Shown here in pieces: positions 1-16,563 of a stretch of DNA of 64,000 nucleotides (position 1 is the first letter of the stretch; every line of letters starts with the position of its first letter). This stretch comes from a virus (taxonomy: Duplodnaviria; Caudoviricetes): IMG/VR virus record IMGVR_UViG_3300014208_000002, positions 32,001-96,000 of that record, one strand, 5' to 3'. The notes under the pieces were generated by a model, which saw only the letters and a program-made list of their open reading frames with translations, searched no databases and was not told the DNA's origin. A program made the position numbers and the translations under genes.

Positions 1-572
1 ATTCTAATATGCTAGGGGCTAGTGCTGGATATAATTCTTGTTGTGTTTCTCATTCTGTTTTTATAGGAAGATCAGCGGGTGCTGTTTCCGATAACTCATG
101 CTACGCAGTAATGATAGGTACTTGTGCTGGAAATGTATCAAGTAGTTCTTCTTATTCCACCTTTATTGGAACTTGTGCTGGTATTTGTACTATATGCGCC
201 ATCAACTCTATTTTTATGGGATATGGTGCAGGATTTAATGCTGACTACTCTAATAATTCAATTTTTATAGGAAGAGCTACGGGTAATTATGCATGTTGTT
301 CTTCTTGTTCTACTTATATAGGTTACTTTGCAGGAGTGTCGGCTTACTGTTCTTCATGTTCAATTTTCATTGGAGTGTGTACCGGATTTAATGTGTGTTC
401 TTCCCCAAATACTTTAATGATCGGAAATAATACTGGCATAACCCCCCTTCTCTGCGGAATAATGGCTACTACTGCGGTGGCATCTAAACTTACTATAAAT
501 GGTGCATTAGAACCAATTTATTTAATACTCCCTACTACTTGTGGTGGAGCGAATTCTATATGGCTAGTCTAA
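1..572 (+). CDS. Tail-fibre-like beta-solenoid repeat protein, 5'-truncated by the window edge
   Basis: Frame open from the window start; nine exact 17-aa units with (F/M/Y)(I/M/L)G-x3-G; Ser/Cys-rich (16 Cys in 187 aa). Confidence 0.65.
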   Translation, partial: SNMLGASAGYNSCCVSHSVFIGRSAGAVSDNSCYAVMIGTCAGNVSSSSSYSTFIGTCAGICTICAINSIFMGYGAGFNADYSNNSIFIGRATGNYACCSSCSTYIGYFAGVSAYCSSCSIFIGVCTGFNVCSSPNTLMIGNNTGITPLLCGIMATTAVASKLTINGALEPIYLILPTTCGGANSIWLV

Positions 573-588: not shown

Positions 589-1221
589 ATGGCTTTAGCG
601 GCAGAAAAATTATGTTATAATCGTGGTGGAACAAACTACGCTATAAATACCTATACTGCTTTTGCCGATGTTCAGTGTGCTATAAAAGCTTTGTGTTTAA
701 AAAATGCAAGTGGTGATTTTAGATATACTCCTATTGGTATTACTACTGACCCAAGAGCCGGATATCTTAGAGTAGGGATAGGAAGTACAGCTTATGCAGT
801 AGAAAATACAGCAACTATTTCTTGGGCACGACAACTAATAAATTGTTCAATTCCTTCTTATAATAATACTTCACAGCCTATTGCAAGAATGTATTGTAGC
901 TCTGTTACTAATCCTGTTGTTAGTTATTTTATTATAGATTTTTCCGCAGGATATAATATAAGATTTGATTGGAATGTTACTATTTCTTCTTCCCCCCAAG
1001 CGGCACGGTTTTATGTAGTAGACCCAATCGATTCAGTTATAATAGATACTGGGTGGAAAACTTCAACCTCTGGTGGGGCCAGCTTTACAAATGATTGTAC
1101 TGACTCCATTACTCAATGCTATAGGATTTGTGTTTTAACTTGTAGATATAGCACCACAGATGGATATACTACTTGGTATTGGCACCCAGCTTTTAATTTT
1201 CAAGTTTATACTCATGGATAA
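589..1221 (+). CDS. Putative tail fibre / receptor-binding-associated protein
   Basis: AGGAG SD; beta-rich Thr/Ser/Tyr composition; follows the repeat fibre gene. Confidence 0.45.
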   Translation: MALAAEKLCYNRGGTNYAINTYTAFADVQCAIKALCLKNASGDFRYTPIGITTDPRAGYLRVGIGSTAYAVENTATISWARQLINCSIPSYNNTSQPIARMYCSSVTNPVVSYFIIDFSAGYNIRFDWNVTISSSPQAARFYVVDPIDSVIIDTGWKTSTSGGASFTNDCTDSITQCYRICVLTCRYSTTDGYTTWYWHPAFNFQVYTHG

Positions 1222-1232: not shown

Positions 1233-1907
1233 ATGGTAACTATTTGGTATAATTCAAAAGGTAAACCCTTTTTCTCAAAAGAATCTGCATTAAAGCAAGG
1301 AGAACAAGAAACTGATTTAAGTTCTGTTGAAGTAGAAAATATTCCTGATAGTTTTCCAATAAAATATTGTGGAAGACGCTATGTAGATAATATATCTCAA
1401 AGAATAATTGATGATGTAGAAATTGAATATCAATATATTGTGGATGTAATAAATAAGACTTTGAAAAAGCTTACTTGGGTAGATAGATTTTATCTAGGAG
1501 AGTTTACTCTCGCTGATTTTCAAGCAAAGGTGTTAAAGAAATTAAAAGTTGATTATTCTCTCATTACAAGAGAATCTGATTCAATTTTTTCTATGTACAC
1601 AAAACGAAAAAATCTTGACTTATTAGAAGAAGGGGATTTAGAAAAGTTCACCCTCTATATGACTGCATATAAAGACGCCACTATTCAATATCGAACGCTC
1701 CGAGATAGAGTAAAAAATGCTTCAACTATTGAAGAGCTTTATGAGGTTTGGGGAATACAATATTCTGTACTTGAGGGGGCGTATGTAAAACTTTCTGGAA
1801 TAGTTACTGAGCCTTCACAACTCATACTAACAGAAGAGGAAATAAATCAAATTACAAAAGAGTATGAATCTATTCTTACTGTACCAATGGAAGGAACAGG
1901 AGGTTAG
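1233..1907 (+). CDS. Putative tail fibre assembly/chaperone protein
   Basis: AGGAG SD; helical, with RDRVKNASTIEELYEVW resembling C-terminal motifs of fibre assembly proteins; position after fibre genes. Confidence 0.35.
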   Translation: MVTIWYNSKGKPFFSKESALKQGEQETDLSSVEVENIPDSFPIKYCGRRYVDNISQRIIDDVEIEYQYIVDVINKTLKKLTWVDRFYLGEFTLADFQAKVLKKLKVDYSLITRESDSIFSMYTKRKNLDLLEEGDLEKFTLYMTAYKDATIQYRTLRDRVKNASTIEELYEVWGIQYSVLEGAYVKLSGIVTEPSQLILTEEEINQITKEYESILTVPMEGTGG

Positions 1908-1912
1908 CATTA

Positions 1913-2803
1913 GTGTTAGCTCTACATACCTTTGATACTTTATCCACAACTGGATTGAAGTTTACTGGCTTAAAAAAAGCTGATACTGTTACCATGATTT
2001 TATCGGCGCTCCAATGGCGAAAAATTAACGGGGATATTAAACTCTATTGTGATAAGATATTTTATTCGTGGTTAGATGAAATTGGCTTTACAGATATATA
2101 TTCAGAAATTGATAAAGAACTTTTAGATAAATCCCGTGATCCAAATATAAATATAAGTAAGCAATATGGTTTTTGGGCATCTTCTAAATTCTATGCAATG
2201 AAAGAACAAATATATCCCTTTTTTATGCTTGATATGGATTTGATTGTAAATCTTAATCTAAAATATTATACTGAACAGGATTTTGGTTTAATAGCTTTTG
2301 GACAAGAGCGAATTAGTAATTCTTGGAGAGATATTCCAGTATATCCCCCAAAAGAAAATATATGGACGCCAGACGGATATGTTTTTGATGAGAGATTAGA
2401 TTGGGAAACTCCTCCAGTAAATTGTGCGCTTACTTATTTTGAAGATTTGGAATTAAAAGATGAATATATAAATGAAGCGTTTAGATTTATGAAAAATAAT
2501 ACCCTCCCTGATTATTCTAATAATAGCAAATTTCCTCCAATGATGATGTGTTATATTGAACAGAGATTTTTACCTATGTTAGCTAAACTTCGTGGTGTAA
2601 AATATAGTACATTTCTTTCAGGATATCTTGGTGGAACTTCAGTAGAAGCTTTAAGCAGTACTCGCTTTTTTCATTTATGGTGTGCCAAACATATTCCTAC
2701 TCTTAGAATAAGAATGTATAAATCATTGATAAAGGATTTAGAAAAGCGATATCCAATATTTTACAATAGGTATCTACAAATTGAAAACAAACTTCAAGAT
2801 TGA
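1913..2803 (+). CDS. GT-A-fold glycosyltransferase-like protein (DUF6734-like from memory)
   Basis: GTG start; FWASSKF...FFMLDMDLIV with DxD motif; first gene of the glycosylation island. Confidence 0.6.
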   Translation: MLALHTFDTLSTTGLKFTGLKKADTVTMILSALQWRKINGDIKLYCDKIFYSWLDEIGFTDIYSEIDKELLDKSRDPNINISKQYGFWASSKFYAMKEQIYPFFMLDMDLIVNLNLKYYTEQDFGLIAFGQERISNSWRDIPVYPPKENIWTPDGYVFDERLDWETPPVNCALTYFEDLELKDEYINEAFRFMKNNTLPDYSNNSKFPPMMMCYIEQRFLPMLAKLRGVKYSTFLSGYLGGTSVEALSSTRFFHLWCAKHIPTLRIRMYKSLIKDLEKRYPIFYNRYLQIENKLQD

Positions 2804-3704
2804 AAAAACTGGAATATCTGGCATCGCTCGATTACGAAATGAGGAAGAATATCTCCCTATTATTCTTGATAGATTCCTTCCATTCTTAGATGAAATTATT
2901 CTTGTTTGTGATAAAGGCAATACAGATAATACTCCTGATATTTGTGAAGACTATAGAAGGCGTTATCCAGACATAATTAAAACCTATTATTATCCTTATG
3001 AGGTATATCCTCCATTGTCCAAAGAAACTTTATTTTGTAAAGAAGCTGATCCAAGAGCTTTATGGAACTATAATAATTGGGCATTTAGTAAAGCTACTCG
3101 GTCATTCTCTATGAAGGTAGATGGCGACTTAATCCCTCGGGCTGATCTAATGAATTATAAAGACCTTATTTGGGATATAGTGAAAAAAAGTTATATTGTA
3201 GAATTACACGGTGCAAATTTAATTATTGATAATGATAAATTAAAAGTTTTTTCTCCTCCTGAATCTAACATTATTCTTTGTGGAATGAATGACCATTTTT
3301 TAAGACATAATGATATTTCTAATTTCTTTGGTAGACAAAAATCAAGCTCATGTGAAGTGTGGTGTGTTCCTTATCTTCCAAAAAAGTTTAATAAAGGATT
3401 CCCCTATTTCTTTTTTTATTATCATATGCGTTGGTGCAAAAAGGATATTTGCTCTAATCGAGGCAATATGGGAATTTCTAATTCTTATTATGACCATTAT
3501 GCTTATTATAAAGATTCATTAAAAATAGATGTGCCTGAAGCAAAAATAGATTGGGAAAGCTGGATTATCAGCTATAAAAATATTGTTGATACATACCGAG
3601 AAAACTACTATAATATAGATATAGGTATTCCTGATCCAAATATAGATACTGAGCTAATTAAATATATGAAGGATAAAAATCTATATAATGAAGCCAAATT
3701 ATAG
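2781..3704 (+). CDS. GT2/CgtA-like glycosyltransferase, copy 1
   Basis: TTG start; GISGIARLRNEEEYL, EIILVCD...DNT, KVDGD (DxD). Confidence 0.75.
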   Translation: MKTNFKIEKTGISGIARLRNEEEYLPIILDRFLPFLDEIILVCDKGNTDNTPDICEDYRRRYPDIIKTYYYPYEVYPPLSKETLFCKEADPRALWNYNNWAFSKATRSFSMKVDGDLIPRADLMNYKDLIWDIVKKSYIVELHGANLIIDNDKLKVFSPPESNIILCGMNDHFLRHNDISNFFGRQKSSSCEVWCVPYLPKKFNKGFPYFFFYYHMRWCKKDICSNRGNMGISNSYYDHYAYYKDSLKIDVPEAKIDWESWIISYKNIVDTYRENYYNIDIGIPDPNIDTELIKYMKDKNLYNEAKL

Positions 3705-4581
3705 TATAGAACATCAGGGTATTTCAGGGATCGCTCGACTACGAAATGAAGAGGACTTTCTTCCTATAGTCTTAGAAAGGTTTCTCCCCTTTCTTGATGA
3801 AATTATTTTAGTTTATGACGCCGGAAGTATTGATAAGACAAAAGAAATATGCGAGGATTTCCAAAGAAAAAACCCTCATAAGGTAAAAGTTTACAATTAT
3901 CCCTATAGGGTATATCCTGCTAACTCAAGAGAACTTCTTGTTTGTGAAGAAAATGATCCTTGCGCTCTTTGGAATTATTATAATTGGTCATTTAGCAAGT
4001 CTACTTGTTCTCATTCAATGAAAATAGATGGTGATCTTGTTCCTAGAAAAGACTTGCTGAATTATAAAGAATTGATTTGGGAAGAACTAAATAATTCAAA
4101 ACCATTTATTGAAGTGCATGGGGCCAATCTATTTATTCAGGACAATGAATTAAAAGTATTTACAACAGAGCATGATTTTACTGTTTGTACTGGATTAGAG
4201 GATCATTTCATACGAAAAAATGATGTGGCAAATTTATTCTATCGAAAGAAAGATGAGCCTTGGGAAAAATGGTTTTATCCTAAATTTATTGGCTTATGTA
4301 TTCCCTCCACTTTTTTCTACTATCACATGAGGGGGTGTAAACAAAACAAGTTCATAAACTGGGGTTATGCACCAATAATGGCAGAATATAATACTTATAA
4401 AGAATTTTCTAAAATTGGAAGACCTGAGTATAATAAAGACTGGGTTAATTGGGAAAAATCCTATCGTCAATTTATTAAAAAGCATCATCGACTAGATAAC
4501 TATATTGAATTGGGACTTCCGAATCCTAATGAAGATAAAGAGTTTATTGAATATTTAAAAAAGTGGGGTTTTCTAAAATGA
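3688..4581 (+). CDS. GT2/CgtA-like glycosyltransferase, copy 2 (paralog of 2781..3704)
   Basis: GISGIARLRNEEDFL, EIILVYDAGSID, KIDGD; collinear with the upstream paralog. Confidence 0.75.
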   Translation: MKPNYSIEHQGISGIARLRNEEDFLPIVLERFLPFLDEIILVYDAGSIDKTKEICEDFQRKNPHKVKVYNYPYRVYPANSRELLVCEENDPCALWNYYNWSFSKSTCSHSMKIDGDLVPRKDLLNYKELIWEELNNSKPFIEVHGANLFIQDNELKVFTTEHDFTVCTGLEDHFIRKNDVANLFYRKKDEPWEKWFYPKFIGLCIPSTFFYYHMRGCKQNKFINWGYAPIMAEYNTYKEFSKIGRPEYNKDWVNWEKSYRQFIKKHHRLDNYIELGLPNPNEDKEFIEYLKKWGFLK

Positions 4582-5399
4582 TGATTGAAATAACCACAAA
4601 TATATTAGATTGCGGCTGTATTATGAACTGTCTATTCTGCCCTCAGCCTACATTATTGAAAAATTATAAAAGTAATATACGAATGTTATCTTTCAATGAC
4701 TATAAAAAAGCAATAGATAAAATTCCTTCTAATATTGAAATTCGCTTTGCTGGATTTTCTGAACCCTGGCTTAATAAAAAAACTACAGATATGATTTTAT
4801 ATGCCCATGAAAAAGGACATAAGATTTATATTTTTACTACAGGGGTAGGACTATCAGCTGAGGCGTTTAAGCGAATAGAACATATAACCTTTGAAATGTT
4901 TGTTTTACACTTACCAGATAAGCAACAAAACGCCCATCATAATATTACTCCTGAATATATTGAAACAATTAAGTATCTAAAAGAAAATGTAAAAGTTTGT
5001 AGAAGCAGTACATGGACAAAAAGAAATCTTACTTTAGATACTATGCACATGGGGGTATTACATGATTCTGTAAAAGATATTTTTCCCGACTCTTTAAATT
5101 ATCAAATGTCCCCTCGGGCATATAACTTAAAAAACGAATATAATATAAAGCCGGAATTAAAAAAGAAGTTTCTCAGAGAAATAAATCATGGAGAAGGTAA
5201 TTATACTTGTAATTTTCCAGAAGGATTTCATAGAAATGTCATGCTCCCAAACGGGGATATGTATCTTTGCTGTATGGACTATGGGCTTGAACATAAATTA
5301 GGAAATATATTTGAAGAGGATTATTTAATTATAATAAATCGAACTAATAAAACCGACTGGCATCTCTGTCAATTTTGTGAGTGGGCTTGTAGGGTATAA
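4563..5399 (+). CDS. Radical SAM protein with C-terminal SPASM/twitch domain
   Basis: CIMNCLFC (CxxxCxxC), FAGFSEPWL, FTTG, and C-terminal C...LPNGDMYLCCMD...LGNI...CQFC; true start may be the ATG at 4578. Confidence 0.85.
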   Translation: MGFSKMMIEITTNILDCGCIMNCLFCPQPTLLKNYKSNIRMLSFNDYKKAIDKIPSNIEIRFAGFSEPWLNKKTTDMILYAHEKGHKIYIFTTGVGLSAEAFKRIEHITFEMFVLHLPDKQQNAHHNITPEYIETIKYLKENVKVCRSSTWTKRNLTLDTMHMGVLHDSVKDIFPDSLNYQMSPRAYNLKNEYNIKPELKKKFLREINHGEGNYTCNFPEGFHRNVMLPNGDMYLCCMDYGLEHKLGNIFEEDYLIIINRTNKTDWHLCQFCEWACRV

Positions 5400-5406
5400 A
5401 ATAAAG

Positions 5407-5417
5407 CTACTAACATA
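5407..5417 (+). promoter_or_regulatory. Candidate late-promoter motif CTACTAACATA
   Basis: Intergenic, 42 nt before ATG 5449; identical 11-mer at 9688. Confidence 0.55.
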
Positions 5418-5448
5418 AAACTAATAGAATATAAGGGAGAAATAAAAT

Positions 5449-6948
5449 ATGGACTACTATTTTAATAATTTATTTGGTGACGGGATTGGCTGGAACTTTG
5501 GCGTATCTACTTGGATTAAGAACACAAAAAAAGCATTAGAGTCTTTTGGTCTTAAAAATAAAATAGATGCAAAGTTAGCACTTTCTATTGGACTCCCCCG
5601 AGCGTTTAACCCAATACCTTCCCGATTTAATGTTTTCATGACCCTCTTTGAAACAGAGGATTTATTTGATGATGACTATGAAAAGTTAAATAAAGCCGAT
5701 GTAATTATTGTTCCTTGTCAAGCTAACCAAAAAGTATTAGAAAGAAACTTGAGAAAAGACATTCCCGTTTATGTAGCTATTGGGGGATTTGATCCTAAAA
5801 TCTTCAAATATAAAAAGAGAGAGAAAATTGACAAAGAGTTTATTTTCCTCTATGTCGGTGCGCTCAATCCCCGAAAGGGTTTTGACTTGGCGATTAAGGC
5901 GTTTAATAAATCAAAAGGATTATATCCTAAAGCAAAACTTTATATCAAGACGACTGAGGAAGGTAAAGATGGATTTGAATATAATTCCTTTGGAGATATT
6001 ATTTATGATTATCGAATACTCTCTACCAAAGAATTAGTGGATATTTACTATAAATCCCATTGTCTACTCCTCCCAAGCCACGGTGAAGGAATTGGTCTTA
6101 CTGCATTAGAAGCCGCCGCCACAGGTCTTCCTGTTATTCATACTGCATATGGTGGTACAGCAGAGTTTTTAGGTTTTCAAAATTCTCTTCCATTAAAATA
6201 TAGTCTTGAAGTAACTGAACTAACTTACCCCGGAGAACCAAAAAGAGTAAGAGCAACTAAGTGGGCAGAAGTCCACATTGATGAACTTATTTCTAAAATG
6301 GATTATGTATATGATAGATATGCACAAATAATTAAAGACTCTAAACCTTATTTATTAAATAATATAAAGCAATTCTCTTGGAAAAATTACGGAAAGAATC
6401 TTATTGCTATATTCAATAAATATAAAGAGGATATAGAACGAGCCATCCTCAAAAAAATACTTAATCTTGGTTGTGGAAATAGAAAATATCCAGGAACAGT
6501 CGGAGTGGATATTCGTAAAGATGTTGGCGCAGATATTGTATGGGACTTATCTAAGACTCCTTATAAGTTTGCTAAGGATGAATCATTTGATGAAGTAATT
6601 ATAATAAATACTCTTGAACACTTACTTGATCCCCTTCCCTTCATGAAAGAGGCTTATAGGATTTTGAAAACTGATGGACTACTTCATATACAGGTTCCTT
6701 ACTGGCGTTCAGAAAACTTTTTTATTGATCCAACTCATCATCATGCGTATCATGAACTGTCTATGGATTTTTTTGATCGGACTACTTTTCACGGAGGACT
6801 AAATAATTATATTCCCGTTAATTTCCGTATACTAAATAGACAGGTACTAGAGACTGGAGACATTTATTTTATTCTTCAAAAGAAATGTTATAATGATTTA
6901 GGAACTTGTGCTTGTTTAAATGGGGGTGGCTGTGACTGCAAAAAATAA
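5449..6948 (+). CDS. GT4 (GT-B) glycosyltransferase fused to a class I SAM-dependent methyltransferase
   Basis: FLYVGALNPRKGFD and PSHGEGIGLTALEAAATGLPVI (GT4); C-terminal LNLGCGNRK...VGVDI...LEHL...RILKTDG (methyltransferase). Confidence 0.85.
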   Translation: MDYYFNNLFGDGIGWNFGVSTWIKNTKKALESFGLKNKIDAKLALSIGLPRAFNPIPSRFNVFMTLFETEDLFDDDYEKLNKADVIIVPCQANQKVLERNLRKDIPVYVAIGGFDPKIFKYKKREKIDKEFIFLYVGALNPRKGFDLAIKAFNKSKGLYPKAKLYIKTTEEGKDGFEYNSFGDIIYDYRILSTKELVDIYYKSHCLLLPSHGEGIGLTALEAAATGLPVIHTAYGGTAEFLGFQNSLPLKYSLEVTELTYPGEPKRVRATKWAEVHIDELISKMDYVYDRYAQIIKDSKPYLLNNIKQFSWKNYGKNLIAIFNKYKEDIERAILKKILNLGCGNRKYPGTVGVDIRKDVGADIVWDLSKTPYKFAKDESFDEVIIINTLEHLLDPLPFMKEAYRILKTDGLLHIQVPYWRSENFFIDPTHHHAYHELSMDFFDRTTFHGGLNNYIPVNFRILNRQVLETGDIYFILQKKCYNDLGTCACLNGGGCDCKK

Positions 6949-8917
6949 TCGTGCTTTTATCACGGGAATTTCAGGACAGGACGGAAGTTATCTAGCTGAA
7001 CTTCTTTTATCTAAAGGGTATGAAGTAGCTGGGTTTATTCGTCGAAGCTCTAATCCCAACACTGCCTCTCGTATATCTCATCTAATAAATAAGATAAAAT
7101 TATATCAAGGTGATCTACTAGATATGAATTCTTTATCTATTGCAATAAGGGATTTTCAACCAACAGAAATTTATAATCTTGCGGCACAGAGCTTTGTAGG
7201 TATGAGTTGGGAACAGCCTTTTTACACCTCTGAAGTAAATGCACTTGGGGCATTAAATATTCTTTCTGTAATAAAAGATGTAAATAAAAATATTCGATTT
7301 TACCAAGCGAGTACATCTGAATTATTTGGAAAGACAACCTCTTCTATACAAGATGAGTTTACACCTTTTACTCCACGAAGTCCTTATGGTATTGCAAAAC
7401 TATTTGCTCATTGGACAACAGTAAACTATCGAGAGTCTTATGGTATGTATGCTTGTAGTGGAATATTATTTAATCATGAAAGCCCTAGAAGAGGTTTAGA
7501 GTTTATTACTAAGAAAATAACAAACCATATTCAAGAGTTTGGAAATTCAAAACCTTTACTGATTGGTAATATGTCCGCTCGACGAGATTGGGGTTATGCA
7601 AAAGAATATTGTATAAATACAGATGTTCCTATTTTAACTCTTTCTGGATGGAAATATTGTGATGAAGTAAAAGAGGGAGATAGTATAATTAACTTTGACC
7701 CCATAAATAATAATTTATCTACTGATATAATAAATAAAATAATAGTAAAAGAGGATGAAAGAAATAGAATACATTTAAGTGGAAGGTCTTTTGATCTTAC
7801 TTGTACGCCTGAACATAGAATTTATTATCAAAAAAAGAGTAAAAATAGCAAGGGCGGCTGGTCAGATTGGAAAGTTATATCTGCTCAAGATTTCGCTGGT
7901 ATGTTACAAGATAAGGTAACTCGAACAAAATATGATTATAGATTACCTCACTTTCAAGATTATAATGCTAAGGAAAATAATAAATGGTCTGATGAAGAAA
8001 TTTATCTTTTAGGGGCTTTATTAGCAGAAGGGTGTATTTCAGAAAAAAATAGAATAACATCTGTTTCTATTTCTCAATCTTTTATTAAAAATGAACCTAC
8101 TCATAAAAAGATAAAGGATTGCCTAGATAGATTATGTTTAATTTATCATACTAGGAATACTAACTCTGGTGTTACAGAGTGGGTGTTAACCTCAGAGTCT
8201 AGTAAAAAAATATTAGAATTATTTGATTCTAATGATATTCATATAGCCCCTAACTGGATATATAGTTTATCAAGCAGACAAGCAAATATTTTATTTAATT
8301 CTTTAATGGACTGTGATGGACATTGGGGAAGCCTAACTTATATTTCCAAACGATACCAATTGGCAGTAGCGTTTCAAACTATTGCTATATTGGCTGGATA
8401 TGCTTCAACAAAGATACATCAGAGGAAGTGTGGTGTTTATAGTTCTACAGTAATATCAAAAAGAAAAAAATATCAGTATATTACTGACATAGAACTTATA
8501 GAACCAGTAACACCTACAGTTTGGTGTGTAAATACTAACAATGGAACAATTATATCCAGGGATAATGACAAAATTTCTATTTCTGGTAATTGTGAAGCCA
8601 TGTGGTTAATGCTTCAACAGGACAAGCCGAATGATTTTGTTATTGCTACAGGAGAAACGCATACAGTAAAAGAGTTTATTATTCAAGCATATAAATACAT
8701 AGGGGCTGAAATTATATTTGAAGGGCAAGGGTTAGATGAAATTGGGATAGATAATAATTCTCAAAGAACTCTTGTTAAAATTGATCCTCAATTCTATCGG
8801 CCCGCAGAGGTAGATTATCTTAGAGGAGATTCTTCTAAAGCCAAGAAGATACTTAATTGGGAACCAAAAGTAAAATTTGAACAGCTTGTAGAAATTATGA
8901 TGGAGGACGAAGCATAA
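6920..8917 (+). CDS. gmd: GDP-mannose 4,6-dehydratase interrupted by an intein
   Basis: ITGISGQDGSYLAELLL, ASTSELFG, SPYGIAK, FNHESPRRG, RDWGYAKEY, DPQFYRPAEVDYLRGD; exteins total 338 aa. Confidence 0.95.
   Translation: MGVAVTAKNNRAFITGISGQDGSYLAELLLSKGYEVAGFIRRSSNPNTASRISHLINKIKLYQGDLLDMNSLSIAIRDFQPTEIYNLAAQSFVGMSWEQPFYTSEVNALGALNILSVIKDVNKNIRFYQASTSELFGKTTSSIQDEFTPFTPRSPYGIAKLFAHWTTVNYRESYGMYACSGILFNHESPRRGLEFITKKITNHIQEFGNSKPLLIGNMSARRDWGYAKEYCINTDVPILTLSGWKYCDEVKEGDSIINFDPINNNLSTDIINKIIVKEDERNRIHLSGRSFDLTCTPEHRIYYQKKSKNSKGGWSDWKVISAQDFAGMLQDKVTRTKYDYRLPHFQDYNAKENNKWSDEEIYLLGALLAEGCISEKNRITSVSISQSFIKNEPTHKKIKDCLDRLCLIYHTRNTNSGVTEWVLTSESSKKILELFDSNDIHIAPNWIYSLSSRQANILFNSLMDCDGHWGSLTYISKRYQLAVAFQTIAILAGYASTKIHQRKCGVYSSTVISKRKKYQYITDIELIEPVTPTVWCVNTNNGTIISRDNDKISISGNCEAMWLMLQQDKPNDFVIATGETHTVKEFIIQAYKYIGAEIIFEGQGLDEIGIDNNSQRTLVKIDPQFYRPAEVDYLRGDSSKAKKILNWEPKVKFEQLVEIMMEDEA
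7610..8590 (+). mobile_element. Intein (327 aa) with LAGLIDADG homing endonuclease, inside gmd
   Basis: Starts at Cys (EY|CINTDVPIL), block B TCTPEHRI, LAGLIDADG-like YLLGALLAEGCI and LFNSLMDCDGHW, ends ISGN|C; removal restores RDWGYAKEY-CEAMWLMLQ. Confidence 0.92.
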
Positions 8918-8918
8918 T

Positions 8919-9344
8919 ATGATAAAAGTAGCAATATCAGGTGGATTTGATCCCCTTCATGTAGGGCATATTAAATATATTCAAAATGCAATAGCCCTTG
9001 GCGATCATTTAATTGTTATTCTGAATGGTGATTCTTTTCTTATGCGAAAGAAAGGATTTATTTTCATGCCCGCAGAGGAACGAGTAGAGATTATTCGAGC
9101 AATTAGGGGAGTAGATGAGGTATGTTTATTTAATTCAGAAAAAGATGATGTTTGTGATGCTTTAGCAATGTTCAAACCCAATATTTTTGCAAAGGGTGGG
9201 GATCGTACTGGACCAGAGAATATTCCTGAATGGGATTTTTGTCAAAAAAATCATATTGATGTTGTAGTAGGAGTTGGAGGAGGAAAAATTCAGTCCTCTC
9301 AATGGCTTACTAAGAGTATTGAATTAAAGGAGAAAAATAAATGA
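8919..9344 (+). CDS. HIGH-motif cytidylyl/adenylyltransferase (RfaE2/HldE C-terminal or TagD-like)
   Basis: SGGFDPLHVGH, ERVEII...GVDEV, FAKGGDR, QSS motifs. Confidence 0.85.
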   Translation: MIKVAISGGFDPLHVGHIKYIQNAIALGDHLIVILNGDSFLMRKKGFIFMPAEERVEIIRAIRGVDEVCLFNSEKDDVCDALAMFKPNIFAKGGDRTGPENIPEWDFCQKNHIDVVVGVGGGKIQSSQWLTKSIELKEKNK

Positions 9345-9685
9345 TTTATTCTTCCGGGGATTTATTTGATAAATGCACAATTCTTGATATTAAGCTACGC
9401 AAGGGGCTTCATGTAGAGAATGAGTTTCAAGTGGTTTATAACGAAGTAAAAGAATTATTAAAAAAATATCCAAAGACAAAGGCTATTTACAAGAAACTTT
9501 TTGAATCCAATCTTGAACAGTATGATTTGGAGGATTTAATACGAACTGAGAAAGACCTTGCTGTAGTTGGAAATATTGCTCTTAATATTCGTAGTCATAA
9601 TGATGCAAGAGTGCTATTAAAAAATAAGATAAATGAAATTACACAGGAAGCTTTTAAGGAAGTTAAAGATTATAAGAGAAGTTAG
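9341..9685 (+). CDS. Conserved hypothetical protein (DUF6165-like from memory)
   Basis: SGDLFDKCTILDIK...YDLED.IR...ND.R..LKN.IN...EVKDY pattern; overlaps the upstream gene by 4 nt. Confidence 0.5.
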   Translation: MIYSSGDLFDKCTILDIKLRKGLHVENEFQVVYNEVKELLKKYPKTKAIYKKLFESNLEQYDLEDLIRTEKDLAVVGNIALNIRSHNDARVLLKNKINEITQEAFKEVKDYKRS

Positions 9686-9687
9686 GT

Positions 9688-9698
9688 CTACTAACATA
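9688..9698 (+). promoter_or_regulatory. Candidate late-promoter motif CTACTAACATA
   Basis: Intergenic, 38 nt before ATG 9726. Confidence 0.55.
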
Positions 9699-9725
9699 AC
9701 GAATCAAATATAAGGAGATTTTTAT

Positions 9726-10643
9726 ATGGCAAGTAATACAACGGTCGTCCTCAGCGGGGGAATTGGAAAATGTGTAGCGTTCACAGCGGCAATCCCAAAG
9801 ATGGTAAAGAAATATGGTCCTATCACAATTATGTCCCCTTGGCCCGATTTGTTTACAGACCTTGAAGGTGTGTATCGTTCTATTAGTTTCGGCGTGGAAT
9901 ATGGCTACGAGTACTTTCAAGGAAAGAATCGCCTTTCACCCGAACCCTACAACCGCAATGACTTTTTTCAAAAGAAGATTCATTTGATTGACGGCTTCAT
10001 GAAAGAGTGCGGATTAGAAGAAAACTATGATTCATTAACTGATCTTCCTCTTGCCCCGTCCTTTCTTGATATAAATTCAAAGAATAAAATTGATGCTATT
10101 CGCCAAAATGGAAAGTATATCGTAGTACAGTTTATGGGTGGAAATCAGGCTCAAAATGGTAAGATGAATGATAAGTTTATGGCAAAGGATTACCCTCCTC
10201 AGCTTATTGAAAATTTGATTATTGCTATTGGAAAGAAATATGGTAGTAAAATCCAGATTGTCAATTATGGGCTTCCTTTTGAATTTAATATTGCAAATAC
10301 CATTTCTGCGGCAGACTTGCCCTATACTGCGGCGGCTTATTTATTGAAGAACTCTGAAACTTTTATTGCAATAGACTCTAATCTTCAGCATTTCTCTGCT
10401 TGCAAAGGAGTAGAGAAGAAGGGCATAGTCCTTTGGGCGGCAACGGACCCAATAAACTTTGGATATCCTCATAATATAAACCTCTCGGCAGAGTGCCCAT
10501 ATAATGACCTTCATTGCAACAGACCCTATTTTCAGCATACCTCTGATATAGTTGGTAAGGGCATTCCTTGGTCTTGTAAGACAAAAGATTGTCTAAATAT
10601 TTCCCCAGAGAAAGTTCTCTCCGAATTAGAAAAGATTATTTAA
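9726..10643 (+). CDS. GT9 (heptosyltransferase-like) glycosyltransferase
   Basis: SGGIGKCVAFT N-terminal motif; FIAIDSNLQHFSA...GIVLWAATDP..FGY C-terminal GT9 motif. Confidence 0.75.
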   Translation: MASNTTVVLSGGIGKCVAFTAAIPKMVKKYGPITIMSPWPDLFTDLEGVYRSISFGVEYGYEYFQGKNRLSPEPYNRNDFFQKKIHLIDGFMKECGLEENYDSLTDLPLAPSFLDINSKNKIDAIRQNGKYIVVQFMGGNQAQNGKMNDKFMAKDYPPQLIENLIIAIGKKYGSKIQIVNYGLPFEFNIANTISAADLPYTAAAYLLKNSETFIAIDSNLQHFSACKGVEKKGIVLWAATDPINFGYPHNINLSAECPYNDLHCNRPYFQHTSDIVGKGIPWSCKTKDCLNISPEKVLSELEKII

Positions 10644-10660: not shown

Positions 10661-10705
10661 AAAGACTCGGAAGCTACTAATACAGTAGAATCCGAGTCTT
10701 TTTTA
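10661..10705 (+). terminator. Intrinsic terminator containing the late-promoter-like motif
   Basis: AAAGACTCGGA(10661-71)/TCCGAGTCTTT(10691-701) stem plus inner CTACT/AGTAG stem, then a T run; CTACTAATACA at 10674-84. Confidence 0.8.
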
Positions 10706-10719: not shown

Positions 10720-13425
10720 ATGGGAACAACTAATTACGGTACACAGACTACTACTTTTAAGTATAAGCAAGCGGCGTTATCCTCTACTTTCAATGCTTTA
10801 AATGATAGCCTTATTCCTACTGGGATATATTCCGGTGGGTTGCTATCCCGTGTATCTGATGGTTCTATACAAGTAGCCCCCCTTACTTGTTATATAAAAG
10901 ATACTACACCCAATTCCAATATTTCTCGAAGAGTACAGACAACATCGGCAGTTAGTATTGTTGGATTTACTTCCACCGATTGCTATTGTGTTTTAAGATA
11001 CTCTTGGGTTGCTTCTGAAACAGATTATATGGATATTTTAGCAGTAGACTATAATACTCTTTTTGCTACTGAAACTACATTAAATCAAGGTTATTTACTT
11101 TTAGGAAAAGCAATTTATGAAGGCGCTACTATGCTTTCTTATTTTGATTATACTTTCCGATCAGATGCCTCATTACAAGAGATAGAAGACGAAAAAAATA
11201 GTTTTTATGTAAAACCCTATAATGATCCTACTATACGCCGTATCTATGTTTATCCAGGAAAAGCCGTAGTAAATGGAAAATATATTGATTTTTCGGGAGA
11301 CACTTATCCCTCTGCCCCTAGTACCTTCGATAACACTACTCTTGGACGAATAGATGTAATTTATGTAGACGCCACGGGAACAATAAAAAAAGTTTCTTCA
11401 ACTGACCAAACATTAACAATAACGTATCCTTTAAATTTTAATACCTTTGAATCAGAAAATCCTGGAGCTATCCCTGATTTCCCAACAGACGGAATGGTTG
11501 TCGCTATTATTATTCGTGGTTTAACCCGAAATACAATTGAGGGAAGAGATATAATTCAAATTGAATATGAACGAAATAGTTTTACTGGCGCAGAAAATGA
11601 TATTACTTTTAAGGGCTGTGCTATTTTTGAACAAAATGTTCAAGTAGCTGGAAATCTTCATGTTCAAGGAAATATGATTATTGATGAAGGAACAATTACA
11701 GAATATGAAGATAATATAATAACACTCAATAAGCCCCCTACAGGATGTGCTTCACTCTATTCTACTTCAGGAATTGATTTTTATCAGGGTGGTCCAGCGT
11801 GTTGTACAACAGGATTTGGGCCTAATGATGCTCAGTTTCTATATGACTGTACTGTAGGATATTTCAAAGCGGGGGTAATGGATTGTTTTACTCCTCATCT
11901 TCAAAGAGTGGTAACCCAACAGCTTATTCCACAAGTATATGGTGTTCCTTTCTGGAGCGGAACAAAAGTTCCTAACTCAGATAGCATATTAGAATATGAC
12001 CAATTTTTTACTTTTAATAACGCTTGCAGTGCGAATAAAATTCTAAATATTGGAAATGTTACTTGTTCTGCCCCTGCTGATGTAAGAATATCCGGTGGAA
12101 TGACTATTGGACAATGCGCTCCAGGCGACTTTGATGTAAATATAAATCAATTTATTGTAAATGAAACTTCTGTCTTTAATAATAATGTAACAATAAAATG
12201 TGGATGCTCTATTCTATACCGAGAGCATGGGGTTCCTGAAGAATCTTTGGACACCCGCTATCTAAGAGCTTCAGCTTCAACTTATAATGTTGTTACACTA
12301 AATGATTTTTATATTGGAAATGGCTCAACTTCACAAAAAAGATTATTTGTCTATTTGAATGATGGTAGTGGTTGTGTTAATGCTACTCCTTTAGCACTTG
12401 AAGATGCATTCCTTTTTAAGAAATGTTGGGGGAGTGCTTTACCTGGATATATTCAACAATCTATTGAAACAAGTCTAATTATTTGCTGTGGTAAAACTCT
12501 TACTTATATGGGTGATGAATTAGATCAAAGGCATGTTAGAACCAACTATACTGCTATTGAGGGAAATACCCCGGCATTGGCTGTTACTATGTGGGGTGAC
12601 TATACCATTAAACAGGCGGGAAGTAATAATGCTTGTTTAAATATTCAGGGTACTCTTCGGTCTGGATTGTATAATACTTCTTGTTATCATTTACTTGCTA
12701 CTGAGGGTGGAACATTTACTTGGAATGGATGTAATATTATTTATGAAAATGGCTGTTCAGGAGCTTGTTGGAACGCCTTTGTTTCTCATGCTCAATATGC
12801 TTTACAAACTTGTGGAAACTCTACTACAGCCTCTAATTTTAATACTAATCGTTGCGCTCAAATAAATGGTGTAGGTGGAAGCTGTGCTTATTCTATCTGT
12901 GCTACAGGAGACTATGTTTGGGATATTTCCGCAGTAAAAATTAACCTTGCTACTTGCTCACAATATCTATATAGTTGCACTACACTAATTCCTCATGCAA
13001 AAATAGTTACAACAGATGGAACGGGAGGAACAACAAACTTAGCTACTACTCCTGTAGGAAATGCAGACATGGTAGATGGATATCACGCTAGTAGTAGTGC
13101 TACAGGTAATACCGTTGCTGTTAGAGATGGGGGAGGAATACTTCATGCTTATGGATTCAATGTTGTTTCCAAGAGAGCTTTGAAGGAAAATATAAAAGTA
13201 TTTAATAAATCTGCCCTTGGGTTAGTAAAAACGGTTGAAGTAGTAGAATACAATTATATTCTTGATCCAGAAAAATCATCTAAAATAGGGTTTATTGCAG
13301 ATGATACCAGAGAAGAATTTTCCACTTCCTGTCATAATACAATGGATGTTACTTCTTCCATTGGAATTTTATTAAAGGCCGTTCAAGAACTTGATAAAAA
13401 GATTTCTTGTTTGGAGAATAAGTAA
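10720..13425 (+). CDS. Long tail fibre protein with C-terminal intramolecular chaperone (peptidase S74-like)
   Basis: N-terminal virion-anchor-like region, Gly/Thr/Cys-rich shaft, C-terminal SKRALKENI...IGFIADD...LLKAVQELDKKI with Ser-x4-Lys dyad. Confidence 0.8.
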   Translation: MGTTNYGTQTTTFKYKQAALSSTFNALNDSLIPTGIYSGGLLSRVSDGSIQVAPLTCYIKDTTPNSNISRRVQTTSAVSIVGFTSTDCYCVLRYSWVASETDYMDILAVDYNTLFATETTLNQGYLLLGKAIYEGATMLSYFDYTFRSDASLQEIEDEKNSFYVKPYNDPTIRRIYVYPGKAVVNGKYIDFSGDTYPSAPSTFDNTTLGRIDVIYVDATGTIKKVSSTDQTLTITYPLNFNTFESENPGAIPDFPTDGMVVAIIIRGLTRNTIEGRDIIQIEYERNSFTGAENDITFKGCAIFEQNVQVAGNLHVQGNMIIDEGTITEYEDNIITLNKPPTGCASLYSTSGIDFYQGGPACCTTGFGPNDAQFLYDCTVGYFKAGVMDCFTPHLQRVVTQQLIPQVYGVPFWSGTKVPNSDSILEYDQFFTFNNACSANKILNIGNVTCSAPADVRISGGMTIGQCAPGDFDVNINQFIVNETSVFNNNVTIKCGCSILYREHGVPEESLDTRYLRASASTYNVVTLNDFYIGNGSTSQKRLFVYLNDGSGCVNATPLALEDAFLFKKCWGSALPGYIQQSIETSLIICCGKTLTYMGDELDQRHVRTNYTAIEGNTPALAVTMWGDYTIKQAGSNNACLNIQGTLRSGLYNTSCYHLLATEGGTFTWNGCNIIYENGCSGACWNAFVSHAQYALQTCGNSTTASNFNTNRCAQINGVGGSCAYSICATGDYVWDISAVKINLATCSQYLYSCTTLIPHAKIVTTDGTGGTTNLATTPVGNADMVDGYHASSSATGNTVAVRDGGGILHAYGFNVVSKRALKENIKVFNKSALGLVKTVEVVEYNYILDPEKSSKIGFIADDTREEFSTSCHNTMDVTSSIGILLKAVQELDKKISCLENK

Positions 13426-14523
13426 ATGAGTGGTTTTACTAATAATGGTATAGCAATTGAATCTTGCATCTGTCTCGCTCCTTCTGTTTTTTCATCTTGT
13501 CAGATTAGATTTTGTCAATTAGGTGTTGACTTAGGAAGACAATTTGTTTTAACCAATACTGCTCCTTATATAGGGCATCGTCCTAGTTTTCAAGCTAATT
13601 TAGGTTTTACCTCTTGTGGTGTAGCCGGAGGAGATTTAGGGTGGTGTGTTTCACATTGGCAAAGATCAGTTACTACAGGTGTCTCTTTAAGTAGATATAA
13701 AGAATATTCTACGCCTATGAATATTCAATACTCGTGTGACCTCTATGGATGTAGGTCTGTAGTAACAGTAGTTCTTATTGGCGGCGGCGGGGGTGGTGGA
13801 GGCGGTAAACAGACTTTATCAGATGACGGCGGCGGGGGCGGGGGTGGTGGAGGAACTACAGTTATAGCTCAATCTGTTTTTATTCCTAATTTGAGTATAA
13901 TATGTGTAGGTGCTGGTGGGGCGAGAGGGCTTGTAGGCTATAATGGTAGTAATGGTAGTAGTTCTTATATTCAGAATATAAGCTATGATTTATCAGGAAT
14001 TGGTTGTAGCGGTGGATATTATTATAATTTTTGTGTAGTAGCTCCCGGTGGTAGAGGTGGGGGTGTAGGAGGAGATGCGGGAAGTTGTCCTGGAAATGGG
14101 GGAGGAGCAGGAATTGTATCAGTAACTAATGGAGCTTGCTTTGCTGGAGCAACAGGTTGGACAAGTGGAGGAGCAGGAGGAGCGGGGACTAAAGAGAGTA
14201 GTCCCTCTCATCCTAATTCTTGTGGAATGCAAACGGGGCCTAGTATAACATTAGTAGACTACTACGGCAATAGTATAAGTACTTCTGCTAACTCCGGGAG
14301 AGCATTATTTGAAATAAGCGAAGCTGGAAATGGAGGACCGGGGGGGTCATCTACTTTCTGTAAGGGAGGAAGAGAGGGCTATAACTACGCAGGAGTACCA
14401 GCGGTAAATGGTAGTCCAGGGTGTTTTGGTTCGGGTGGTGGAGGAGGACATGGTGATTGGAATGAAGGAGAGTCTTCTAATGGTGGCAATGGTGGGGATG
14501 GTTATATAATTATTTATTGGTAA
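13426..14523 (+). CDS. Glycine-rich tail-fibre-associated protein
   Basis: VVLIGGGGGGGGG, GGGGGT, GSGGGGG and terminal GGNGGDGYIIIYW typical of phage Gly-rich domains; 16 Cys. Confidence 0.7.
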   Translation: MSGFTNNGIAIESCICLAPSVFSSCQIRFCQLGVDLGRQFVLTNTAPYIGHRPSFQANLGFTSCGVAGGDLGWCVSHWQRSVTTGVSLSRYKEYSTPMNIQYSCDLYGCRSVVTVVLIGGGGGGGGGKQTLSDDGGGGGGGGGTTVIAQSVFIPNLSIICVGAGGARGLVGYNGSNGSSSYIQNISYDLSGIGCSGGYYYNFCVVAPGGRGGGVGGDAGSCPGNGGGAGIVSVTNGACFAGATGWTSGGAGGAGTKESSPSHPNSCGMQTGPSITLVDYYGNSISTSANSGRALFEISEAGNGGPGGSSTFCKGGREGYNYAGVPAVNGSPGCFGSGGGGGHGDWNEGESSNGGNGGDGYIIIYW

Positions 14524-15124: not shown

Positions 15125-15508
15125 ATGAAGGTGTTTATTGGAGACATTGTAGGTGCTAAAGATGTATTCGCAAAGCTTATTCAGCTTGAATTTGGTGCAA
15201 AGACCGCACTAAAACTCATGCTCATTACCAATGAAATGCAACGGTATTTAGAGTCTTATGAAAAGACAAGAATCTCTCTTGTAAAGAAGTATGGACAAGA
15301 GGATGAAGCGGGACAGATTATTGTCAAGGCAGGAACAGAAGAATATGGAAAGTTCATTGATGAAATCAATTCTATCTCTACTGAAGCAGTTGAATTAAAT
15401 GTTCCTGAATTGACTCAAGATGAGTTGACAAAAGATGATTCTATTAAGTTCTCTGCGCTTGACCTGTTAAAGATTATGCCATTCTTGAAAAAGGATGATA
15501 CAATTTAA
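15125..15508 (+). CDS. Conserved phage protein (DUF1617-like from memory)
   Basis: KL...NE..RYLESYEKTRISLVKKYG...E..KF..EI..I..E.VEL pattern; after tail fibre genes. Confidence 0.55.
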   Translation: MKVFIGDIVGAKDVFAKLIQLEFGAKTALKLMLITNEMQRYLESYEKTRISLVKKYGQEDEAGQIIVKAGTEEYGKFIDEINSISTEAVELNVPELTQDELTKDDSIKFSALDLLKIMPFLKKDDTI

Positions 15509-15600
15509 AAATGTGGTTTAATTTATTTAATAATAATGTAAAAAAGTTTTTTTTCTTTCCAAAGATTAAATTAGAAAATAAAAAGGAGGAGGAAGTTATT

Positions 15601-16209
15601 ATGGAAAATACATTATCTTTTGATTCTCTTCCTGTTATTGATGATTTTCTAACAATAAATAAATATAGTAGACCCGGTAGAAAGCGTCCTGAGACTCTTG
15701 CTGTTGTACTTCATTGGACAGCGAATCCAAACGCAAGTGCAAAAGCTAACCGTGACTTTTTTGAAAGTAAAAAAGATGGAAAAACAAGTTATGGTTCTAC
15801 AGAGTATATTGTAGGGTTAAAAGGTGAAATTATTCGATGTATGCCTGATGAAGAAATTTCATATAATTGTGGAACCTCTTCTGTCGATCCTATATCTGGA
15901 AAGATTTATACTGATTATGCAAGAGAAAAGTTTGGAAAGTATGTTTTAAGACCGGATATAGAATCTCCAAATAGCTGTACTGTAGCAATTGAAATGTGTC
16001 CTATTGATTGGAAAGGAAATTTTAAACCTGAAACATGGGAAAGTACAAAGAAGTTAGTTGTTTGTCTATTAAAAAAATATAATCTAGGTTTGAATGATAT
16101 TACTACGCACGAAAAAATTGTAGGATATAAGTTCTGTCCTCAATTATTTCACGATCATCCTGAAGAATTTGATAGGTTTGTAAAAGAAGTCGGAGAACTT
16201 CTTGTATAG
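15601..16209 (+). CDS. Endolysin, N-acetylmuramoyl-L-alanine amidase (Amidase_2 / T7 lysozyme-like)
   Basis: VVLHWTAN, EYIVG, AIEMC, TTHEKIVGYKFCP (His/His/Cys Zn ligands); start moved from 15511 to the ATG behind AAGGAGGAGG. Confidence 0.85.
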   Translation: MENTLSFDSLPVIDDFLTINKYSRPGRKRPETLAVVLHWTANPNASAKANRDFFESKKDGKTSYGSTEYIVGLKGEIIRCMPDEEISYNCGTSSVDPISGKIYTDYAREKFGKYVLRPDIESPNSCTVAIEMCPIDWKGNFKPETWESTKKLVVCLLKKYNLGLNDITTHEKIVGYKFCPQLFHDHPEEFDRFVKEVGELLV

Positions 16210-16218
16210 GAGATTTTT

Positions 16219-16554
16219 ATGTCTACTTCACTAAGACTTAGAACGCATGTTCTCACAACTTCTGATACAGTAAATGGTCACCTTGTCACACCTCTACTTT
16301 TTGATGCGGATTTTACTGCAACACGATATAGATTTAAGACTTTAACTCTTTCTTGCATGACCGCTCCTGCTACTCGCATCTATGTAAAAGGTGCTTTGAC
16401 AGACCCTTGGGTAGAAGTAACACAACTTCTTGCGAACGGAGCGGCTGGATGGATAATCTACGCAATAGATCAAATTTATATTAAAACAAATAGTGCCACA
16501 GGAACAATCGGATTAGTTGCGTATATTTCCGATGCTCAAGGCTCTGGATATTAG
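16219..16554 (+). CDS. Small beta-rich protein, paralog 1
   Basis: AGGAGAT SD; about 50% identical to the next ORF. Confidence 0.7.
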   Translation: MSTSLRLRTHVLTTSDTVNGHLVTPLLFDADFTATRYRFKTLTLSCMTAPATRIYVKGALTDPWVEVTQLLANGAAGWIIYAIDQIYIKTNSATGTIGLVAYISDAQGSGY

Positions 16555-16563
16555 GAGATTATC

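Follow-up and report, generated by a model that had tools for sequence, protein, structure and literature searches.

Chlorovirus PBCV-1 and mimivirus encode sugar enzymes of their own, including a GDP-mannose 4,6-dehydratase (Gmd), the transferase–methyltransferase A064R and the mimivirus fibril sugar cluster, and their glycans are carried by their own surface proteins or fibrils. A set of genes alike by description, with a virus-encoded Gmd, glycosyltransferases and a fused sugar methyltransferase, occurs in a tailed-phage record from groundwater (IMG/VR record IMGVR_UViG_3300014208_000002; 200,726 bp), of which we have analysed bases 32001-96000 (64,000 nt; the window). Unlike this phage, PBCV-1 and mimivirus are eukaryotic giant viruses, and their transferase sequences are presumably unrelated. 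The nine open reading frames (ORFs) concerned, at 1913-10643 of the window, are all present; they lie on the + strand, neighbours overlapping slightly or being separated by a few nucleotides. As an earlier description made from the DNA letters (the sequence-only reading) had stated, they are flanked by fibre genes. These specify Cys-rich fibres with 17-residue repeats upstream, and a fibre with an S74 chaperone and a Gly-rich protein downstream. They constitute a real glycan-assembly island within the fibre module. With moderate confidence, we read it as a late-expressed, cytoplasmic island, the likeliest substrate of which is the phage's own tail fibres, in a manner similar to TibC and AAH.

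TibC and AAH (BAHT, family GT9; PDB 4rap/4rb4) heptosylate Ser in the repeat beta-helix of TibA/AIDA-I, and TibC carries a four-Cys iron finger (Cys339, 342, 358, 370), a C-lobe insertion that touches the substrate helix (PMC4358343). The product of the last island gene, ORF9, would share their GT9-type GT-B fold (Z 19.8-19.9, 263 residues aligned) and has four conserved Cys in the C-lobe near its C-terminus, which may bind a metal. It is predicted to be cytoplasmic and is encoded beside an S74 fibre gene, while homologues of the type found in Pelagibacter phage HTVC111P stand behind fibres with 17-residue repeats, a likeness of adjacency alone; a putative ADP-heptose-type nucleotidyltransferase is encoded nearby. 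Unlike TibC, whose residues 1-97 make up an N-terminal beta-barrel, ORF9 is catalytic domain from its very start and aligns with TibC only from residue 95 onwards. The identity with TibC is only 11%, WaaF, WaaC and 3tov score equally well, and a phage fibre would take the place of the autotransporter as substrate. Members of BAHT assemble into a dodecameric ring and take the heptose from ADP-heptose.

Glycosylation of mycobacteriophage virions has been demonstrated (Freeman et al. 2023, as cited in PMC12363180 and PMC12619734). Reportedly, a few transferases are involved there, which in actinobacteriophages modify capsid and tail-tube subunits at their C-terminal ends, and no donor-synthesis, radical S-adenosylmethionine (SAM) or methyltransferase genes are described. 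The common trait would be that a phage glycosylates its structural proteins in the cytoplasm with transferases of its own, as far as the genes alone suggest for our phage; the present island differs in having nine genes, with donor and tailoring enzymes, beside fibres, and in that its target is putative.

Glycan genes in fibre modules have already been described (PMC7029224). In the hypervariable "host recognition cluster" of pelagimyophages and cyanomyophages, rfaE-type, transferase and radical SAM genes are interleaved with tail-fibre genes, and such cassettes have been assigned, without tests, to the modification of the host O-chain or cell wall or to "antibiotic synthesis" (PMC7029224, PMC12801897). 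Our locus is similar in that sugar genes lie among the fibre genes of a large aquatic contractile-tailed phage; unlike in the published interpretation, a late-type motif, soluble enzymes, fibre–GT9 cassettes in small phages and gene fusions point to the fibres here. Particular to this locus are a nucleotidyltransferase–DUF6165–GT9 core by an S74 fibre gene, an intein-bearing Gmd, a member of a very large, uncharacterised phage radical SAM family, and Cys replacing the Thr-Thr turns of fibre repeats. The features are listed in Table 1.

Table 1. Features of the island and its surroundings (window positions unless stated otherwise)
Feature	Position	Strand	Remarks
1279-aa fibre protein (6% Cys), C-terminal end; 17-residue repeats ending ...SNFIG	1..572 (genome 28733-32572)	+	
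210-aa protein, 4.3% Cys, no family; presumed fibre-associated	589..1221	+	
224-aa acidic protein, no family	1233..1907	+	
ORF1, DUF6734 protein with LDMD motif; putative transferase	1913..2803	+	Pfam 34.1 bits, cut-off 27
GT2-like transferase, paralogue a	2781..3704	+	Glycos_transf_2 match
GT2-like transferase, paralogue b	3688..4581	+	Glycos_transf_2 match
ORF4, compact 278-aa radical SAM protein with abbreviated SPASM/Twitch-type C-terminus; CX3CX2C at C19/C23/C26	4563..5399	+	Pfam
CTACTAACA promoter-like motif, 33 nt ahead of GT4-methyltransferase start	5407..5415	+	
ORF5, GT4 glycosyltransferase fused to C-terminal class-I SAM methyltransferase	5449..6948	+	Glycos_transf_1, E 2.7e-18
ORF6, GDP-mannose 4,6-dehydratase (Gmd), intein-interrupted, 665 aa	6920..8917	+	TIGR01472
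Predicted intein in Gmd, 327 aa (aa 231-557), one LAGLIDADG-type motif	7610..8590	+	alignment to intein-less Gmd of L089
ORF7, HxGH nucleotidyltransferase (HVGH motif)	8919..9344	+	CTP_transf_like
ORF8, 114-aa DUF6165-like helical protein	9341..9685	+	domain type judged from homologues
CTACTAACA promoter-like motif, 29 nt ahead of GT9-like start	9688..9696	+	
ORF9, GT9-fold glycosyltransferase (predicted); DSNLQH donor-site-like motif; four conserved C-terminal Cys (257, 264, 284, 289)	9726..10643	+	
Terminator-like hairpin and U-run, holding CTACTAATA copy at 10674-10682	10661..10705	+	-28.6 kcal/mol, z -7.35
901-aa fibre, C-terminal S74 intramolecular chaperone	10720..13425	+	syntenic in relatives
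365-aa Gly-rich tail protein, 4.4% Cys	13426..14523	+	

The GT9-like enzyme and its neighbours in other phages

ORF9 scores 16.3 bits against the Pfam GT9 model (PF01075; E 0.0065), below the cut-off of 22; this domain is carried by some of its homologues of 32-41% identity. The top 30 Foldseek matches of the AlphaFold model (predicted local distance difference test, pLDDT, of 86.5) all belong to GT9, and the structural Z-scores with 3tov, WaaF, TibC and WaaC range between 19 and 21.6 over 247-264 aligned residues, as compared to about 12 with other GT-B enzymes. The protein is predicted to have a GT-B fold nearest to the solved GT9 members. All 21 homologues compared, the most distant at 29% identity, keep residues D217, S218, Q221 and H222 as well as other polar residues. 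These four may belong to a D-(S/T)-x-x-x-H donor-site motif of the type present in the C-lobe of WaaC/WaaF, and a weak profile match of ORF9 to these enzymes spans the same stretch. The four Cys, situated just before the last helix in a poorly modelled region (pLDDT < 50 at residues 268-279), are kept in the closer homologues and missing from the pelagiphage-type ones. A link of this four-Cys finger with Cys-rich fibres proved inconsistent, since one locus (L102) combines a Cys-rich fibre with a finger-less GT9.

Relatives of ORF9 were identified in 133 viral contigs, of which the 80 best loci were examined. In a locus with a GT9 of 70% identity (L089), the gene order is MT24, GT4-methyltransferase, intein-less Gmd, nucleotidyltransferase, DUF6165, a small ORF, GT9, S74 fibre and Gly-rich protein. 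The contig of P0127 (69% identity) specifies an N6_N4 methyltransferase, the nucleotidyltransferase, small ORFs, GT9, the S74 fibre and, further on, an amidase, and in a 125-kb contig (L088/L099; 60% identity), GT4, DegT, a dTDP-sugar isomerase, epimerases and FkbM are followed by GT9 and DUF6165. Judging from these gene orders, the nucleotidyltransferase–DUF6165–GT9 core beside the S74 fibre gene is conserved in relatives, and the sugar-tailoring part upstream is swappable.

The association with fibres extends to much smaller phages. In HTVC111P (31.6 kb), the start of gp53, 34% identical to ORF9, coincides with the stop of the tail fibre gene gp52. A fibre-like ORF occurs within two genes in 37 of the 40 evaluable viral loci of the two largest ORF9-like sequence clusters, and also in a few small clusters; many of these loci are mutually related, by which such counts are phylogenetically non-independent. 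With one representative per cluster, five of 17 clusters were fibre-positive, the background being 9%. One locus (L134, 2-6465) carries a tandem duplicate of a cassette consisting of a fibre gene, a GT9-like gene and two small ORFs, in which the two transferases are 75% identical and the fibres 38-47%.

The radical SAM family and the promoter-like motif

ORF4 scores above the cut-off with both Pfam models, PF04055 (30.4 vs 29.5) and PF13186 (23.4 vs 21.5), and in the alignment of its family C19, C23, C26, C236, C237, C269 and C272 are invariant and C216 nearly so, which identifies it as a radical SAM enzyme with a SPASM/Twitch auxiliary domain. The ORF4 sequence by itself found no match in PDB; the profile of its family matched BtrN best (E 6e-7), and also DesII. 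BtrN, a Twitch-type sugar dehydrogenase (PDB 4m7t), was likewise nearest to the structure model of ORF4 (pLDDT 89.6; Foldseek E 7e-9), and the two have the small size, the CX3CX2C motif and the short auxiliary-cluster C-terminus in common. The TM-score is about 0.56-0.62 at 16% identity, and peptide-modifying SPASM enzymes score nearly as well. CteB, DesII, EpeE and anSME are structural neighbours at similar TM-scores, and SuiB is found too.

Homologues of ORF4 at 40-49% identity are abundant in metagenomes. A scan of viral contigs with the single protein gave nothing; the alignment-based scan identified relatives in 484 viral (IMG/VR) contigs, the 80 best loci of which were inspected. Most of these 80 feature a recurring module of fused or adjacent genes, for a GH130-like/beta-mannosyltransferase-like protein of ~325 aa, a TPR/FkbM-methyltransferase-like protein, the radical SAM enzyme and often a small FkbM; fusions of both kinds, GH130-like with radical SAM and TPR/FkbM with radical SAM, exist. 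Long collagen-like or S74-chaperone fibre genes lie a few genes away in many loci, sometimes together with 2-oxoglutarate (2OG)-Fe(II) oxygenase, gp13 and sheath genes, and in the cultured Synechococcus phage DSL-LC02 (L006, 47489-51199) the module is situated between annotated tail-fibre genes. One homologue occurs instead in a large deoxysugar cluster, which also holds a T4 AGT-like gene. Because of the recurring module, the radical SAM family appears to be functionally tied to glycosyl and methyl transfer; the same triad is seen here with non-homologous partners, GT2/GT4 transferases and a class-I methyltransferase. The GH130-like–TPR/FkbM–radical SAM module (L002-L087, aquatic phage contigs) itself looks like a post-translational modification system for fibres. 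A link of Cys-rich fibres with the radical SAM family, seen in only one of the 80 loci (L019), was dropped.

The synteny survey agrees with the fibre association suggested by the sequence-only reading: unrelated phages have a GT9-like gene immediately following a fibre gene, and members of the radical SAM family accompany glycosyl and methyl enzymes next to fibres.

The motif CTACTAAYA, previously noted at 5407, 9688 and 10674, is present at all three positions, and the island carries the same promoter-like element as the long fibre gene and, in addition, the sheath and tube genes. In the window, it occurs seven times, where 1.4 copies are expected and none of 100 shuffles reached seven. Genome-wide, there are 25 copies, 17 of them 4-50 nt upstream of the start of an ORF on the same strand. 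The most enriched upstream motif of the genome is (C/T)TACTAATA; over all upstream regions, ACTAATA/TACTAAT is the top 7-mer (32-33 observed, about 3 expected), level with Shine-Dalgarno words. A scan for the sigma-70 consensus gave no enrichment (81 sites vs 79.5 expected). Allowing one mismatch, the motif precedes 37 ORFs, mostly in + strand structural blocks, including those for the tail sheath, the tail tube, the 652-aa, 1279-aa and 901-aa fibres, the GT4-methyltransferase, the GT9-like enzyme and several homing endonucleases. The gene for the 1279-aa Cys-rich fibre has a TACTAATA-type copy 33 nt before its start. GIY-YIG/HNH homing endonuclease genes with TACTAATA 17-19 nt upstream are located at genome positions 2402-3178, 103678-104436 (- strand), 135481-136341 and 155590-156363.

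We infer that the motif is a late-type promoter element of the phage and, since sheath, tube and fibre genes are likewise preceded by it, that the island is expressed late. No copy is associated with ORFs 1-4, transcription of which presumably continues from the upstream fibre promoter. The CTACTAATA copy at 10674 forms part of the inner stem and loop of a long-loop hairpin directly before the S74 fibre gene, overlooked by the general terminator scan; because the motif lies within this terminator-like structure, the island would end there and the S74 fibre gene would restart from the embedded copy.

Fibres or another substrate

The pathway that we propose would draw on two host metabolites: GDP-mannose, which the intein-spliced Gmd would convert to GDP-4-keto-6-deoxyhexose, and a sugar-1-phosphate, plausibly heptose-1-phosphate, which the HxGH nucleotidyltransferase would activate. 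The GT9-fold enzyme, together with the DUF6165-like protein, would attach the first sugar at Ser/Thr-type (here, possibly Cys) turn positions in the 17-residue beta-roll repeats of the fibres, the equivalent of what TibC and AAH do on autotransporter adhesins. The GT4 enzyme, both GT2 enzymes and perhaps the DUF6734 protein would lengthen the glycan, the fused methyltransferase would O-methylate it, and the BtrN-like radical SAM enzyme would oxidise or epimerise a sugar.

Modification of fibres is favoured because of the late-type motif and the soluble enzymes, because two unrelated components of the island recur beside fibre genes in unrelated phages, and because of gene fusions, which join DUF6165 with GT9 and radical SAM enzymes with glycosyl and methyl ones. 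As to solubility, no 19-residue stretch of the nine proteins exceeds a hydropathy of 1.64, the value of a Rossmann-type segment, and none reaches a typical transmembrane level. The sequence-only reading had proposed virion glycosylation, on fibres or capsid. The comparative context favours the fibre part of this proposal, by association and not as proof; the capsid as a target is unsupported and, like the "branched" nature of the glycan, had been pure inference. The sequence-only reading had further supposed that the phage makes its own sugar donors, which can be upheld for two steps, Gmd and one nucleotidyltransferase. All GT2, GT4 and SDR matches of the genome fall within the island, and searches of the genome for a GmhA-type SIS protein, a PfkB kinase, an NTP_transferase and a second SDR found none. 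Because only these two donor steps are encoded, the phage would rely on the host for GDP-mannose and the sugar-1-phosphate.

If fibres are the target, the sugar genes among the fibre genes of many aquatic phages, now annotated as "auxiliary metabolic genes" that modify host lipopolysaccharide (LPS), would have to be re-read as a virion-maturation system, which would bear on the range of hosts, the stability of the particle and how host defences recognise it. The question is testable in culture with HTVC111P (gp52 fibre, gp53 GT9-like) and with DSL-LC02, where GH130-like, FkbM and radical SAM genes lie between fibre genes. Our analysis further draws attention to a large uncharacterised family of phage radical SAM enzymes, with functional ties to the transfer of glycosyl and methyl groups.

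Several observations weigh against fibres as the substrate. Every enzyme family of the island is also typical of LPS and capsule pathways; the structure search does not separate TibC from WaaC/WaaF, and ORF9 is devoid of the N-terminal beta-barrel of TibC. The more distant ORF9-like clusters (27-31% identity) have no recognisable fibre neighbour, and the counts of fibre adjacency suffer from the mutual relatedness of loci mentioned above. The island and the downstream S74 fibre gene are probably separate transcripts, given the hairpin between them. Genes that modify the receptor could likewise co-localise with genes for receptor binding, and modification of the host O-chain is the role assigned to such islands in the literature (PMC7029224, PMC12801897).

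These points lead to the explanation that stands next, remodelling of the host envelope, which we regard as the main rival, less probable than fibre modification. The enzymes would then act on lipid-linked LPS or capsule intermediates at the cytoplasmic face and alter the receptor glycan, blocking superinfection or the re-adsorption of progeny to debris, and the genes would lie near the fibres as both track the receptor. LPS/O-antigen pathways classically comprise the families found here (GT9, RfaE-like nucleotidyltransferase, Gmd, GT2 and GT4), the island needs host sugar precursors, and the swapping of sugar-tailoring genes among relatives is as in O-antigen loci; the published reading of the "host recognition cluster" cassettes is the same. 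Because its families are LPS-typical and receptor-modifying genes could sit with receptor-binding ones, this alternative keeps its place behind the fibres. However, Pfam and NCBIfam scans of the island revealed no flippase, polymerase or priming transferase, nor the membrane components of Gtr-type or O-antigen seroconversion (flippase, bactoprenol transferase, periplasmic-face transferase), and the island encodes no membrane protein. The late-type motifs in common with sheath, tube and fibres would leave little time for turnover of the surface. Moreover, a lytic-type pelagiphage of 31 kb has a GT9-like gene alone, exactly behind its fibre gene, the duplication in L134 involves fibre and GT9 as a unit, and a radical SAM module beside collagen-like fibres and a 2OG oxygenase is a context of protein modification.

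It is improbable that the GT9-like protein, and perhaps others, serve as non-catalytic assembly or chaperone factors for fibres, the remainder of the island being an unrelated metabolic moron. Such a role would agree with the one-to-one pairing of GT9-like genes with fibre genes, with the Pfam score under the cut-off, and with the failure to confirm a catalytic base at GGIGK near the N-terminus; the donor-site-like residues D217-S218...Q221-H222, invariant across 21 homologues, the nucleotidyltransferase kept beside the GT9-like gene in relatives, and the fusion of DUF6165 to sugar-tailoring enzymes argue against it.

Hypermodification of DNA, where the transferases would glycosylate modified phage bases and so evade restriction, is a frequent task of phage glycosyltransferases (discussed in PMC12619734), and the sugar cluster around one radical SAM homologue includes the T4 AGT-like gene; we consider it very improbable for the present island. 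No homologue of PF00303 (thymidylate synthase/hydroxymethylase) was found in the complete genome, where 10 of 14 control genomes gave a match, and the alternative is weakened because of this absence. The island proteins match GT2, GT4 and GT9, which are not known families of DNA glucosyltransferases, and not AGT/BGT-type enzymes as in DNA glucosylation of the T4 type, and the island belongs to the late structural module, apart from the replication genes, which are encoded on the other strand.

Least probable of all is a glycosylated peptide or small molecule (of ribosomally synthesised and post-translationally modified peptide or glycocin-like type) that ORF4 would mature: peptide maturation is a frequent role of SPASM/Twitch enzymes, CteB, SuiB, EpeE and anSME are among the structural neighbours of ORF4 and GT2 enzymes can S-glycosylate peptides, but ORF4 leaves no room for an N-terminal peptide-recognition domain before its radical SAM core, its best match in sequence and structure is the sugar-type BtrN, the conserved partners of its family are glycosyl and methyl enzymes, and the island is without a precursor-like small ORF, a protease or an exporter.

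Other island genes, fibre proteins and genome context

Gmd scores 423.4 bits with TIGR01472 (trusted cut-off, 415), in two stretches that flank an insertion overlooked by the sequence-only reading, and it is collinear with its orthologue in L089. The insertion lies between ...GYAKEY and CEAMW... and extends from Cys231 to Asn557, followed by Cys558; it has an LLGALLAEG motif at residue 363 and ends in Gly-Asn | Cys+1, with Gly as the penultimate residue and not the usual His. Metagenome contigs with an intein-less Gmd join at window position 7609. With its absence from the orthologue, Cys1, the Asn-Cys end and the LAGLIDADG motif, the insertion has the hallmarks of an intein with a homing endonuclease and is predicted to be spliced.

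ORF7 certainly belongs to the nucleotidyltransferase superfamily; its best matches, rfaE_dom_II (heptose-1-phosphate adenylyltransferase; 68.7 bits, cut-off 181.5) and TagD (glycerol-3-phosphate cytidylyltransferase; 57.4, cut-off 165.4), both fall far short of the cut-off, and either activity is putative. ORF8 itself has no Pfam match; an exhaustive HMMER search yielded 158 relatives at E <= 0.001, the longer of which carry DUF6165. In some homologues the fusion partner is a GNAT acetyltransferase, with or without a DegT aminotransferase, and in one (P0272) it is TPR plus Glyco_transf_9. Prediction of a complex of the GT9-like and DUF6165-like proteins gave a score of 0.00, which counts neither for nor against an interaction.

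The "GT-A-like" label previously given to ORF1 could not be substantiated beyond the LDMD (DxD-like) motif: sequence searches of PDB, as a single query and as a two-sequence profile, were empty, and so was tblastn against GenBank phages. Among 5.8 billion protein clusters it has a single homologue, 48% identical. A literature search found no paper that mentions DUF6734 or DUF6165. The tandem GT2 paralogues are 50% identical; in both, the Glycos_transf_2 signature covers only the N-terminal part, with 20.7 bits (under the cut-off) for one and 24.3 bits (over) for the other. The top PDB sequence match of paralogue b is GmaR, a flagellin O-GlcNAc transferase (E 0.002, 50 residues), which is too weak to use, and tblastn of this paralogue against GenBank phages gave one partial, unannotated match. 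For the GT4-methyltransferase, an orthologue of which is present in L089, the same search gave weak matches to Streptomyces phage transferases and nothing else. Its C-terminus (window 6850-6948) is a short Cys-rich tail with five Cys within the last 15 residues.

The proteins of the fibre module are unusually rich in Cys (10%, 6%, 4.3% and 4.4%), the highest value being that of a 652-aa fibre protein with 17-residue repeats (genome 25307-27265). The repeats of HTVC111P gp52 share the 17-residue period and register with the Cys-rich fibres, and where gp52 has N-T-T (positions -6 to -4 relative to the ...IG anchor), our phage has A-C-C. A clear homologue of a Cys-rich fibre occurs in a 159.8-kb contig (L100), ~3 kb from a GT4-methyltransferase and GT9-like pair. 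One might speculate, with little expectation of being right, that the paired Cys at the Thr-Thr turn positions are modification sites, where the island transferases would S-glycosylate them or the radical SAM enzyme would introduce cross-links or oxidation; if so, this would be a virion fibre with S-linked glycans or thioether-type links. To our knowledge, such protein chemistry has so far come only from small bacteriocin-like peptides.

The viral record has terminal repeats and is rated complete. An identical sequence is found in the source run and in a second, independent groundwater study; a landfill metagenome contains short identical pieces, and the non-source contigs are at low depth. 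Megablast of the first 12 kb of the window against GenBank phages gave no match. Genes for a tail sheath and a tail tube (genome 3182-5062 and 6225-6749) identify the phage as contractile-tailed. A + strand block, comprising fibre genes, island and lysis cassette, extends from before the start of the window to ~18.2 kb; the window genes beyond are on the - strand, and the replication genes are opposite in strand to the island. The lysis cassette follows the fibre module at window 15125-18185 and specifies a phrog_1401 protein, an Amidase_2 endolysin (15511-16209) and small proteins, some of them membrane proteins; a single strongly hydrophobic segment is present in each of two.

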